Assembly: GCA_951406725.2 (NCBI GenBank)
Contig: OX597824.1
Coordinates: 75,268,001 to 75,332,000 of the forward strand
Length of the DNA: 64,000 nucleotides
Origin: Octopus vulgaris
Taxonomy: Eukaryota
Direction of reading: 5' to 3'
Of this stretch, positions 2,030 through 64,000 are shown piece by piece. The position numbers were made by a program, and so were the translations under genes. The notes beneath the pieces were generated by a model, which had not been told where the DNA came from, searched no databases, and saw only the letters and a list, made by a program, of their open reading frames with translations. The number at the start of each line of letters is the position of its first letter. Within the stretch, counting starts at the first letter, position 1.

Positions 2030-2340
2030 CATGAAACTAAGTGGAGAAGGCTAGCCACTGGATTTGGTTAAAAAGAGACGATGAGCGATGGCTAGAAGTA
2101 TATTGAGTTCATCATAACCAGCTGATCTAGCAAGCGGGGCCTCATATCAGTGAGGGGGGCCGGTGCGCATTGATGCCGTCGAGAGGTAGGCCCCGAAACG
2201 GCGCGCATTCTCCCCTGATGACCCCATACACTTGCTAGCTTCCGATATACGGAGCTTTTAACTGGTAGCACTTGCATGTGCAAGTTGTTTGCAAGATATC
2301 AGTTGATAATTGGAGTATCAGGGTTCTGGTGTCTGTCCAA
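2030..2340 (+). mobile_element. 3' end of an RLE-type (HERO/NeSL-like) non-LTR retrotransposon: ORF C-terminus plus structured 3'UTR
   Basis: 2041-2106 translates VEKASHWIWLKRDDERWLEVY*, matching the AE.AS.W.W.KR terminus of HERO-type LINE ORFs (recalled, not searched). A GC-rich UTR follows. Confidence 0.6.
2175..2225 (+). ncRNA. Permuted hammerhead-like motif in LINE 3'UTR (stem II unclear)
   Basis: GCCGTC|GAGAGG..CCCC GAA ACGGC..TCTCCC CTGATGA. Stem III GCCGT/ACGGC, GUC triplet, stem I 5/6 pairs. Confidence 0.45.
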
Positions 2341-24112: not shown

Positions 24113-25507
24113 TTGGAGGTCAGATGTCATGGTTTGTTGTTGGTCCATCTCGATCTGCAACGGCGGGGGACTCCCATCACTACACACGGAATTGGGTGAA
24201 GCCGAGGGTAGACCGGCAGCGGCGTGCACGGACGACACGCCGCTGCCGTAGCCGGCGGCGTGCGGAAGGCCCGCATAGGTTTCGTAATCCCTGTCTCGTG
24301 TCGTCGAGACGGTGCTAAGGTGCGCCGGGGGTGCTTGCGAATGGGCATGTTGTTGCAACTGTTGCAATTGTTGCTGCTGCTGCTGTTGTTGTTGTTGTTG
24401 TCTGAGTTGGGGAGTAAGCAGTGCAGCAGCGCGTGCAGACACCGTCTGGTGATGCTGTTGAACGTGTCTGGAGGAGAGATGAGAATTTAAAGAGTTCAGC
24501 ACCGACGGGGGAGAACCGCTGTTGTTGTTGTTGTTGTTGTTGCCGTTCGTGGAGTTGTTGTTGTTTGTATTGTTTGTGGTGTTGTTGTTTGTGTTGTTGT
24601 TGTTGCTGCTTGTGCTGTTGTTGTTGACGCTGTGATTGTTGTTGTTGCCGTTGCTGTTGTGATTGGCGCCGCTTCCCGCCACATGTGCTGCTGCAGCCGC
24701 CGCCGCTGCCGCCGCCGCCACGGCACATGTGGTGAGCGACGACACGGAAGCTGACGACACAGCAACAGACGACGAGGGAGAATACTGTTGTTGTTGTTGT
24801 TGCTGTTGCTGTTGTTGTTGTTGTTGTTGTTGCAAATGGTGTTGTTGCTGATGGAGGGAGACAATGGACGATGAAGTAGTAGAAGAAGAGGAAGACGATG
24901 CTGTTGCTGTTACTGCTGCTGCATTCACCACGATTCCCCCGGCAGCGGCTGCGACAACACCCCCGCCACCGCCGCCGCTGCCGCTGCCGCTCACGCCGGT
25001 TCCAGACACACCACCGCCGCCACCGCCACCGCCGCCGCCGCCACCACCTCCACCACATCCCGTACGGTTGCTGGCACCACCAGGCTGGGATGCTGTTGTT
25101 TGTAGCTGCTGTGAAGGTTCCTCCTGGAGCAGGTGATGTTGTTGTTGTTGATGAGGATGATGATGATGATTGTAGTGCTGATGCTGTTGTTGTTGTTGAG
25201 CTTTCTGTTGTTGCTGATGATGATGTTGCTGATGGTGATGTTGGTGATGAGGAGGAGGAGGATGAGTAGCTGAAGAAGAAGACGGCGGCGATGCTGATGA
25301 CGACAGCGACGACAACGACGACGATGACGACGACCCGACTGCACCTGCAACTTGCTGGGGCCCGGGTAGAAATACCCTCAGCGGCTGGCCCGGTTGGCCC
25401 GGTTGGACGACCTGTAACTGCGAAAGGGCTTCCTTCACCCCAGCAGACACTGCCTTTTGTATGGCCTGTAATAACCACTCCACATCGTCTGTTGGAAGAG
25501 CGGCCAT
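24113..25507 (-). CDS. First coding exon (465 codons) of an unidentified low-complexity protein (poly-S/H/Q/G/A/N tracts), probably a nuclear regulator
   Basis: ATG at 25507 in AAAAAAATGG context (MAALPTDDVEWLLQAIQKAVSAGVKEALSQLQ...). Open frame to ...TMTSDLQ, then phase-0 donor GTGAGT at 24112-24107. GC/CpG-rich island in AT-rich surroundings, with mixed-codon homopolymers. Downstream exons not identified. Confidence 0.8.
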
Positions 25508-31698: not shown

Positions 31699-33112
31699 AT
31701 TTCCAGTTATAGAATTTGAAAGTGCTAGGGTAAAATATGCACAGGATCGAGCGACATCATGCAACAGATATCCAACTAACACTTCCAAAATTTACAGAGC
31801 CGAATGTGAATATCCTATTCATACACATACATATTTGTTTTTATGTACAAACTCACACACACACTCACTCACTCAGATAGGCGTATGTGCTTGTCCATAA
31901 TAACAGTGTAAATCACAAAATGAGAACTGAATTCAGTTCTTTGGAAACAATATCTTTTCATTTATAAACAAGCAACGTAAGTTTTAGGTAGAAGTTTACT
32001 GATTCTAAATACTGGCGATGGAGGATGAAGCGCGTGTGTGTGTGTATCTGTGTCTGTGTGTGTGTGTGCGCGTGAGTCTCTGCTTTCGTCGTTTGCGGAT
32101 CAATACGTAAGCGTATCCAGTGTTGTTGGTGCAGCTAGGGACAATTAGTCTTATCGTAAGCACCGAAACTGCGACAGTTCTCTAGATTGGTCAGCTGATG
32201 ATTGAAAAGTACTGTGTTTCTTTTATCCCCTTTACTTTTTTGCTTTCCCATATTAGACATGCATAAATACATATGCGTGAGTATGTCTGTATGCATGTAT
32301 ATATGTATGCATGCATGTATGTATGTATGTATGTATGTATGTATGTATGTATGTATGTATGTATATATATATGTGTAGATAGATAGATAGATAGATATAG
32401 ATAGATAGATGTATATACATACATAGCTACAAAGACAGACAAAAGTAAAGAATAGAGTATCCGGTATCACATTTATTCCATGGTTTACACTTGTTTCAGC
32501 AACGTGTGGTTGACAAATCAAACACAATGTAAATATGAATACTAATATAGTTATTTCCATTATGTAACGTATATTACCAAATAACCTCCAAATCCATGTA
32601 ATCATAACCGAATGAAAAGGTATAATACAAAAGCCGTTGTTCTCTTCCGTGTATACATACATAATATTTTCTTTGTCGCCTACACACATCGTTGAAACAA
32701 TTGTAAAGCATGGAGTGAATGTAATACCGGTTATTTTTCTTTTTTCTCACTTATAATTTATACTCCGTGGCGGAAGTAAACGCTTTCTATTTGTTTAAAA
32801 ACCTGTGTTTCCACAGGAAAAAATTTTCCCTTCAAATATATTTCAAGTCTTCAGAAAAAAACAATTATGCTTGAGCATCTTGTAAAACGCGTTATAATTT
32901 TGCTTATACACAGGCATTATTAACAATACAATACGTGGAATAGATTTCCGTGTTTTATTTATTAATTTTCTTTGAAATACTTATGAAACATAGCGTGCTT
33001 TTTTAAAAAGCTTTCTGTTCGAAGCGCACCAATAACTTTGTACTTCAGTCACGAAAGTAGAAAGTTTTTGGAACGACATAATGTGTGTATATACACACAT
33101 AATGTGTCTATA

Positions 33113-54979: not shown

Positions 54980-55035
54980 TATCCTTACCTTCGGAACGCG
55001 GAGTAGATAAAACAGGGGATAACTGATGAAGGAAA
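54980..55035 (+). ncRNA. Non-circularly permuted hammerhead, 5'-truncated at predicted cleavage site
   Basis: (TA)n-TATCCT..CCTTC GGAACGCG..GGGATAA CTGATGA AGG. Homologous to 63276-63338. Confidence 0.55.
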
Positions 55036-55174
55036 CGTTCTTTATGCTGCATGTCTCGTTTCTGTTTGTTTTTTTCGTTGTTCGAAAAAAAAGATCGTTT
55101 TCTTTTTGTTTTTTATGTTCTCAATTCTCATTCTGTCTACGTTCTTTTTATGTCCTGTAGCCATATATGCATGT

Positions 55175-61856: not shown

Positions 61857-63275
61857 GACTAATAAAAAAAAAAGACGACCCTAGAGAAGAAAAAGGGAAG
61901 TTGAATATGATTATAATCATACAATTCTGCTCTTTGGGATATCAAGTAGATGGCTAAATTTAAAATAGTATTTGGTGGGTTAATCCTTCGTACGGGAGGG
62001 GGCGTCGGATGGATAATAATAAAAAAATAAAAAATAATAGCGGGATACGCCAATAGGTTTTAGTCGAAGAAGGAGTGAAGATACAATAAGGTGTTAAATT
62101 AAACATAATAATTTTTAATAATTATGTTTATAGTACTAATTAATAGTATTTATCATAATAAAGAGCTAATCGATTAAATGTATTTTTTTTATTACTAGTA
62201 GGTGATTAAGCCCATCAGCCTGTTGTCCAAAGTGAGATAGGTCAAGGTCCAGTGTTCGATATAATTGGTCAGTTAAAATTTAAAACAAAAGACCAGCTTT
62301 TGAGATCTTTAAACGGGGTAAGATAAGTAAACGAATGAATGGGAAAATGATATATGTTGTAGGGAGCCCGAAAACGCTTAGGGCAGTATAAAACTCGATT
62401 AAAAAATAAATATTATGGAATAAACGAGGCTAATAATAACATTAGAGTCAAGAGAGATACCTATTTGGACGTTTAGGAAATAAGACGGTTGTGGGGTTAG
62501 GTGATCCAAAAGTTTTTAAAATAGGACTGTGAAATTGTCTTTACCTATAATTTATGAGCATAACATGCTTGCATATGTATGCCTAGTATAATGGATAGTT
62601 TTATCCCTTAGACGGTTATTTTAACCTATTACTCAGCTAACCTTATATATATATATATAAATGTGCATGAATGTATGTGTGTATGTATATATTTAACCAT
62701 ACATGTATACATATATTACATTGCTATTTAGTATACGATTTAATTATTGGAGGTTTACTATTAACACCGATACAAATGTACATAGATTTATGTGTTTCTT
62801 GTTGCAGTTTAATTTTAAAGGTAGTGCTTAATCCTGCTTATATATAGATTGCATACTGTTCTACATGAGGTAAATGTGCTTGAAATTTTTTCTTTTTTGT
62901 TTTTGTTTTGGTATGTTTGTTCCCAAACAACACTTCTTTTATTGCTGTTTCAGGTGTCGAAACCATAATGATATCCGTGGGACAGCTGATGATTGGGTTT
63001 GTTGGATTGTTGGTATGGCTGTTTTTGTATATATGGGATAGTGTTATAACACAACCTTTTGATATATATATATATATATATATATGTTAATAAAATATAT
63101 GCATATATATAAACATATATGTACATACCTACCTCTACATGTACATATACACGCATATATGTGTACAGGACACCAAAAAGACGTCGAACACATAGAGAGA
63201 CGAAAAACATAGACACAAACCAAGGAACAAGACAGGCAAAAAAAAGGAGATACAGGACAATAAGCACAACGAAAA

Positions 63276-63338
63276 ATCCCCTTCTTCAGTCGCTAAAGTT
63301 TCATCTACTAAACGTTTCGAAGGATAAAAGCGAGACGT
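63276..63338 (-). ncRNA. Non-circularly permuted (pseudoknotted) hammerhead ribozyme candidate, complete
   Basis: ACGTC|TCGCT ttt ATCCTTC GAA ACGT (17 nt) AGCGA CTGAAGA AGGGGAT. Stem III ACGT/ACGT, stem I TCGCT/AGCGA, stem II GGGGAT/ATCCTT. Confidence 0.7.
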
Positions 63339-63662
63339 ATACTTCGAAGAAAAATTCCTTCCTGAGAAAAGCAAATCAATTAAAATTCTGAGATCTTTTC
63401 GCAGAGGGGTAAAAAAAGCAAGACGGTAACGACAGTACAAACATATAAACAGTAAAAAATATATATATAAACAGTGGAAAAATAAATATATAACAGTGAG
63501 AGACAGGACAAGGAGAACAAGATAAGAAGGGCTGTTAACGCCAGACGAAAAAAGTATAGCAAACGCTGGATTATAGTGGACATATATATATATATATCTT
63601 TACATACTCACACTCACACACACACATATATATATAGTATGTGTGTGTATATATATATATAT

Positions 63663-63743
<81 letters not shown>

Positions 63744-63792
63744 TGTATGTATGTATTTCTTTCTCCGTCTTTCCTGCTTTGGACTTTTTCTA

Positions 63793-63864
63793 TATTTCTG
63801 ATGAAGAGCTCTGCTCGAAACATGAAATCCTCTTTCTTTTCTTTCATTTCCTGAGCGTCCAATA
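63793..63864 (+). ncRNA. Type I hammerhead in short Penelope-like element
   Basis: TATTT CTGATGA A[GAGC/GCTC] GAAAC..GCGTC|CAATA. Confidence 0.65.
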
Positions 63865-64000
63865 ACACTGCACTTATTCCACGTCGTCGCGTTGTTGTTT
63901 TTACTTGCTTGTTCATGTTTGGATTGATTGTATATGTACACACATATACACACATACACACAAACACACACATACAAACACACACACTCACGCACACACG

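Follow-up and report, generated by a model that had tools for sequence, protein, structure and literature searches.

The motif and its host element

The window (the whole 64,000-nucleotide stretch of Octopus vulgaris DNA that was analyzed) holds, on the minus strand at 63062..63581, a 5'-truncated copy of a repeat designated family A, subfamily A1. This copy has (TA)n on both sides and is 98% identical to the tandem locus L025. A hammerhead motif is located within it. Read along the minus strand, the cleavage-site letters ACGTC (63338-63334) and TCGCT (63333-63329) are followed by TCCTTC (63324-63319) and GAAACGT (63318-63312); the 3' part consists of AGCGA (63294-63290), CTGAAGA (63289-63283), and AGGGGAT (63282-63276). 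The hammerhead core residues CUGAAGA, GAAA, and GUC (an NUH triplet) are all found in the window copy, and the cut is predicted after GUC, between 63334 and 63333. An initial annotation, made from the letters alone, had described these sequences and had noted that the strands follow a non-circular order, i.e. cleavage site–GAAA–CUGANGA (S-G-C); both statements are correct.

Two S-G-C arrangements occur in the window, whereas 100 Markov-resampled windows had 0.01 on average. Over the whole genome, the core-order pattern had 2809 matches, compared to 50 for the reversed control pattern, and a looser complementary pattern had 11363 matches, compared to 3502 for its control. Stem I, for which the matches were not selected, was paired at ≥4 of its 5 positions in 28 of the first 30 loci of the genome itself, compared to 9 of the 121 chance matches from viral contigs. 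Rfam searches gave no match at the gathering score in the whole window, and at E values up to 10 in 62800-64000 they returned no hammerhead, only microsatellite noise. The type SGC descriptor of Eckert et al. calls for CUGAUGA(U)G together with a linker no longer than 15 nt (PMC10085705, in the part available); the window copy fails on these requirements, and the descriptor would miss it. The earlier statement that the motif is borne by a retroelement and escapes standard descriptors was upheld. Minimum-free-energy folding of 63270-63345 yielded none of the proposed helices (z = +1.25), using a method that is blind to pseudoknots.

The host repeat is present in thousands of copies in the genome (1778 first-look candidates). 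Its unit is ~835 nt long, is non-coding (the longest ATG frame is 62 aa), and occurs singly or in tandem, with tandem periods of 832-839 nt and one ribozyme per unit. The 5' ends of the element are variable. At 27 of the 30 loci L001-L030, two pairs of which overlap, the copy stops ~250 nt past the predicted cut and gives way to (AT)n; in the window, this fixed 3' terminus lies at 63084..63102 on the minus strand. The copies of subfamily A1 are 98-100% identical to one another. The unit is also covered by contigs of four sequencing runs, guessed to be of RNA, and these contigs show no ends, strand, or circles. The anatomy of the host is that of a non-autonomous Penelope-type element (PLE) or an animal retrozyme.

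Two further observations concern copies of this repeat. A degenerate family-A3 copy on the plus strand of the window (54982-55165) begins, in fusion with (TA)n, a few bases 3' of the predicted cut. At L163-L167, tandem pairs were found in which both units have the same deletion of the cleavage-site block; therefore, a non-cleavable unit was copied in tandem.

Covariation of helices I, III, and IIIb

Covariation was assessed in 47 family A/D copies; 11 of 58 were omitted, their motif being broken or abutted by a truncation or an inversion. Double-sided changes were observed in 4 of the 5 pairs of stem I, in 3 of 5 in stem III, and in 3 of 5 in an outer helix, IIIb. These three helices had 126 double-sided cells vs. 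43 in shuffles, a value reached by 0 of 500 shuffles, and 95% of their cells were paired, compared to 36-49% when the partners were slid; related copies are not independent, and the shuffle counts and binomial p-values overstate certainty. The cut site and stems I and III had been placed correctly in the initial annotation.

All strands of the motif lie on the minus strand. Stem I is formed by UCGCU, just 3' of the cut (63329..63333), and AGCGA, which together with the CUGAAGA core occupies 63283..63294 and was assigned from the sequence and the 47-copy alignment. The 5' strand of stem III and the GUC triplet (63334..63341), placed by covariation and by the step in 5' ends described below, pair with the segment GAAACGU (63312..63318). 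This segment contains G12-A13-A14 and the 3' strand of stem III, and it is invariant in alignment A1, the rows of which were selected on the motif. Helix IIIb is composed of a 5' strand at 63346..63354 (91% paired) and a 3' strand, GAUGAAA, at 63299..63305 (from the 47-copy alignment); it is weak in the window copy (-3.3 kcal/mol). Between stem III and helix IIIb is a purine-rich internal loop in which GAAG (63342..63345) is opposite GUA (63308-63306), according to alignment A1. The loop of the window copy may be loop-E- or kink-turn-like; by sequence rules, the corresponding loop would be a kink-turn in the Naiad, C, and H copies and loop-E-like in family A.

The segment between stems III and I had been regarded as a 17-nt linker. 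It is instead half of helix IIIb, the covarying equivalent of the "I" helix of Eckert et al.; like that helix, IIIb joins stems I and II, and the polarity matches.

The partner strand of stem II

The strand before GAAA, UCCUUC (63319..63324, with C11.1 = 63319), was assigned to stem II from the sequence, the 47-copy alignment, and cross-family pairing. It is linked to stem I by 3-4 nt. The initial annotation had paired it with the strand after A9 (AGGGGAU...UUUCGUU, 63268..63282), which was appraised by comparing registers and energies. The competing partner is an upstream strand, X (GAAGGA, 63356..63361, with G10.1 = 63361), which is located 27 nt upstream and was proposed as the 5' strand of stem II on the basis of pairing and of partner changes across families.

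Among 86 unique copies, at least 4.5 of 5 pairs with the strand before GAAA could be made by X in 61 and by the strand after A9 in none; any of five equal-width control windows reached this level in 4 of the 86. An unbroken block C, in which stem II directly follows CUGANGA, was not found across these copies. X was in place in 3752 genome matches vs. 13 for the control, and its position across families is 20-28 nt upstream of the cut. The duplex with X has five Watson-Crick pairs, with 97% of cells paired in the 47 copies and a G-C pair at 10.1-11.1 in 45 of them. In helix-only sums, which have no pseudoknot terms, 46 of the 47 copies favored the open form (X as the partner) over the closed form (strand after A9), the median difference being 6.3 kcal/mol. 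A proposed helix closing both ends of the ribozyme was unsupported (shuffle-test p below 0.05 in 1 of 16 representatives).

Stem II is invariant inside families A and D, with no double-sided change of its own, and the case for X thus rests on other families with the same geometry. The layout is present in families unrelated in sequence: A and its relative D, B, C/E, F, H, J, and the tails of Naiads. The strands that pair differ by family (GAAGG/CCUUC, GGGGCC/GGCCCC, GCCCAA/UUGGGC, GCGC/GCGC, and GACAC/GUGUC), and in all 16 hand-picked family representatives the duplex with X was the more stable one. In families B, C/E, F, and J and in the Naiad tails, the strand after CUGANGA is unable to pair with the strand before GAAA. 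With matches selected for neither feature, stem I and X were found together at 22 of the first 30 loci of the genome itself and in 0 of 121 viral chance matches. The last comparison bears on the notion that a chance arrangement in a repeat was merely multiplied by copy number. Copies of one repeat are indeed not independent, but the layout, with its compensatory changes, is common to many sequence-unrelated families, and chance is a very improbable explanation. The hammerhead motif in the window is real.

The true stem II is probably formed by X and UCCUUC, and the stem II first proposed is probably wrong: it can form in the window copy, but it is outcompeted by the upstream partner across families, and its register shows no double-sided change, in contrast to stems I and III. 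Because X prevails across families, the feature probably begins ~25 nt further 5' than originally marked.

In subfamily A1, the strand after A9 is a near-copy of X plus the 5' strand of helix IIIb and could replace both. In this subfamily, and in no other, the closed form is nearly as stable: the helix-only sums for the window copy are -9.9 (closed) vs. -10.6 kcal/mol (open), a gap that narrows to 0.7 kcal/mol owing to the resemblance of the strand after G8 to X and the IIIb strand. The active fold of A1 might then be a plain closed type SGC ribozyme with the same cut site, in which UUUCGUU forms the "I" helix and the core has either re-closed or switches between two folds. Besides the small energy difference, this proposal draws on the pairing of its stem II in 95% of A/D cells (partly through G-U), on the ≥90% conservation of AGGG after A9 in alignment A1, and on the fact that the closed form is the sole one with published cleavage data, as far as the accessible part of PMC10085705 extends. 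However, it requires an A.C mismatch or a bulge, plus two G-U pairs, beside the core; it fares worse in nearly all of the 47 copies, and it is impossible in the families in which the strand after CUGANGA is unable to pair. Further, an extra base acquired in a sister branch of A1 makes the upstream IIIb stronger, and in its best register the pairing of GAAGG would use up G8 and A9, leaving the core inactive. On balance, a closed active fold is judged unlikely. With the open form as the preferred reading, the A1 copy may nonetheless exist as two conformers sharing a cut site, or may be able to displace the 5' product by itself.

The families differ in their carriers, and family B has a member in the window. 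A complete family-B hammerhead with an open core lies at 2110-2295 (plus strand), with the cut predicted after 2180, at the 3' end of an element that we take to be of the RLE/HERO-like clade. In this family, the motif is in the 3' UTR of the RT-encoding element. At L072:4538-8515, a non-LTR element with an 886-aa RT frame (PF00078) has a C-terminus that is RLE-like by eye. On either side of it is a 242-bp direct repeat with the ribozyme inside; such a partial tandem, which is pLTR-like, is unexpected for the group. A possibly decayed copy of a further family, GAAAC...CUGAUGA, with GAAA before CUGAUGA, was noted at 32165-32201 of the window (plus strand).

5' ends of truncated copies

Junctions between microsatellite and element were counted by hand in the first 100 rows of each listing. 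Of those ≤30 nt from GAAA, 87 of 94 loci (first 100 of 486 rows) had the junction at or 3' of the cut. The figure for a second listing was 84 of 96 (first 100 of 208 rows), with four ambiguous cases scored as upstream. The windows compared were 16 nt from the cut in the 3' direction and 15 nt upstream of it. Further upstream, true junctions were found in 38 of 100 (first 100 of 160 rows) over 30 nt. The density of junctions was ~2 per nt upstream vs. ~26 just after the cut, i.e. they were about ten times denser there. Their peak is 6-14 nt after the predicted cut, and inside the ribozyme, at +17 to +33, junctions were present at 32 of 99 loci (vs. 67), or ~40% of the peak-region density. Positions +1 to +6 had 16 junctions, compared to 7 in the 15 nt beyond the cut, a fall of about six-fold (p = 5e-5 if the loci are independent) that occurs despite AT-rich microhomology upstream. 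Of 27 A1-type copies with a base other than C at position 17, 16 have no substitution there; instead, sequence of the (TA)n type adjoins the base that directly follows the predicted cut.

The fall in 5' ends coincides with the cut, as would be expected if reverse transcriptase (RT) runs off a cleaved template. This step suggests that cleavage occurs in vivo at the predicted site. RT stalling at structure may contribute to the pile-up, because the peak, at 6-14 nt, lies where RT could also be held up by helix II, and because ends are raised further 3' as well. Taken to its extreme, this would mean that the fold is real and cleaves poorly, serving as a structured element that binds or stalls RT, with 5' ends piling up as RT pauses at helix II. 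Such an account would accommodate the position of the peak and the raised counts at +17 to +33. It would also sit well with the intact site of most copies, many of which run through the site in tandem, and with the family B motif, where a cut in the 3' UTR of the RT gene seems costly. It is nevertheless improbable. The catalytic residues and the NUH triplet recur in many unrelated families, although this recurrence is partly imposed by the patterns; junctions are still dense at +1 to +6 and fall just beyond the cut; and the family B motif lies in terminal direct repeats of the kind expected from cut and circularized templates. Self-cleavage at the predicted site is the preferred reading of the step.

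Candidate partner enzymes

No ORF-bearing relative of family A was found among the loci read, and no ORF was seen upstream of the A3 or D copies. Naiads target (TA)n and are without canonical hammerheads, although "half cores" have been flagged in them (Craig et al. 2021, PMC8557442, in the part available). Along the Naiad_Ovul tail and the preceding record (Naiad_Obim by file order) in the accessible portion of the Craig 2021 supplement, the order of elements is X, IIIb, III, cleavage site, I, and then both cores. Family A lacks an ORF and does not match the octopus Naiad tail in sequence, and five family-A/D motifs had no match in that portion of the supplement, a file in which line breaks can hide matches. 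Naiads are the best candidates for the partner enzyme. An active partner of another kind is possible, because cephalopod Naiads are old remnants (PMC8557442, in part) while the A1 copies are nearly identical to one another.

A 3' tail of an octopus Naiad is itself present in the window at 62723-63062 (plus strand), tail-to-tail with the family-A copy at a single (AT)n run. It matches published octopus Naiad consensus sequences and has 1490 first-look candidates in the genome. It has kept GAAA (62959) and CUGAUGA (62986); X and the cleavage site are deleted.

At L071:1582-3558 (minus strand), there is a 659-aa Neptune-like PLE frame with an RT and, by eye, a GIY-YIG-like C-terminal region; 18466 first-look candidates exist. 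In about 22 loci, the ~300-nt 3' UTR of this PLE had no CUGANGA or such a ribozyme. It was considered as the partner and rejected: next to a family-C copy its ORF had inserted separately, and it showed no shared tail or match to unit A.

Comparison with known ribozymes and retroelements

In the scheme of Eckert et al. 2023, the order site–GAAA–CUGANGA defines type SGC; ribozymes of this type were validated by cleavage and were found in metatranscriptome contigs, with no genome of a known organism (PMC10085705, in the part available). Like type SGC (HRIMA-1 and variants), the octopus motif has the S-G-C order, three crossing helices, and a short linker between stems I and II, and helix IIIb resembles the "I" helix in its polarity, in its AA linker, and in joining the 10.x strand to the strand before stem I (PMC10085705). 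It differs from type SGC in that its 10.x strand is upstream of the cut and its chain is open after A9, which the block scheme assumes to be impossible (PMC10085705); in effect, the 3' end of type SGC is joined to the 5' end through the internal loop. Hammerheads of types I, II, and III have a circular C-G-S order and an Rfam model, in contrast to the S-G-C order of the octopus motif and its lack of an Rfam match. From sequence, the octopus motif is likely to be a functional variant of the known hammerhead ribozyme.

Animal non-LTR retrozymes share with the octopus element a non-coding tandem unit, one hammerhead per unit, and a dispersal from monomers to multimers; they depend on PLEs, and the octopus unit is within their reported length range of 51-972 bp (PMC7229834; bioRxiv 10.64898/2026.07.22.740005; both in part). 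Ligation of cut monomers to circles has been shown for other animal retrozymes (PMC7229834). As described in the accessible parts of these sources, however, non-LTR retrozymes are defined with type I hammerheads, whereas the octopus wiring is non-circular, is missed by type I descriptors, and is known here from genome copies. Naiad PLEs have (TA)n targets, 5' truncation, and partial tandems in common with the octopus element (PMC8557442), and Naiad_Ovul has the same open-core layout at its end; Craig et al. 2021 flagged Naiad_Ovul as "HHR_half_core" (PMC8557442). The minimal type I hammerheads of PLEs share the PLE context, the G10.1-C11.1 pair, and a tolerance at 9/10.1 (Cervera and de la Pena 2014, PMC4209133); unlike the octopus motif, which is larger and pseudoknotted, they have the circular C-G-S order and are dimer-dependent (PMC4209133). 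A candidate of this minimal kind, belonging to a different element, was seen at 63791-63830 of the window (plus strand): it reads CUGAUGA-A-GAGC/GCUC-GAAA with a palindromic CAUG, and position 16.1 is apparently mutated.

A metagenome scan gave at least 118 matches; among the matches listed, none had both stems and X. The open-core wiring, or a hammerhead open at A9/G10.1, had no description in the open-access main texts and the limited supplement pages searched. The available parts of PMC13725137 and PMC10162972 contained nothing on such wiring.

Proposed mechanism

The motif is probably a self-cleaving hammerhead with the wiring of type SGC, circularly permuted so that the chain is open between A9 and G10.1; it would cut transcripts of the 835-nt retrozyme-like repeat after GUC (63334/63333). 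Its strand order would be X (stem II), IIIb, loop, III, GUC/cut, I, II, GAAA, III, loop, IIIb, I, and CUGAAGA, so arranged that helices I, II, and III all cross to form a pseudoknot. Relative to type SGC, the 3' end would be joined to the 5' end via the purine-rich loop, and the chain would be opened between A9 and G10.1. Cleavage chemistry after the triplet is established for hammerheads, and by analogy the core would fold as in other hammerheads and cleave. The A9/G10.1 step should tolerate the change because PLE hammerheads commonly carry an extra base between 9 and 10.1 (PMC4209133, in part).

Tandem transcripts would be cut to 835-nt monomers, some of which would be ligated to circles, as in other animal retrozymes (PMC7229834, in part). 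A Penelope-type RT/endonuclease, probably of a Naiad or Neptune, would nick (TA)n and prime synthesis ~250 nt past the cut. Linear templates that had been cut would let RT run off within ~15 nt of the cut site, giving short copies; circular or uncut ones would let it carry on, giving tandem arrays.

A broader reading, which we favor by a small degree over its negation, is that animal genomes hold an abundant and unrecognized class of hammerheads, split at A9/G10.1 and outside the six-permutation scheme. This class would be the missing ribozyme of Naiads and would have reached retrozymes as well as an RLE-type non-LTR retrotransposon; in A1, the downstream mimic of the upstream strands would provide a switch between open and closed cores or a means of ejecting the 5' product. 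If so, non-circular permutations of the hammerhead would extend from metatranscriptome contigs to thousands of copies in an animal genome, the assumption of an uninterrupted CUGANGA-stem II block in the published scheme would be broken, and the apparent lack of hammerheads in Naiads would be explained. The open-core wiring would also supply a descriptor for missed retrozymes, and the 5'-truncation step would be a genome-only readout of ribozyme cleavage, reusable for other candidates.

Elsewhere in the window, GC-rich trinucleotide repeats at 24348-25250 may represent a low-complexity coding exon on the minus strand.
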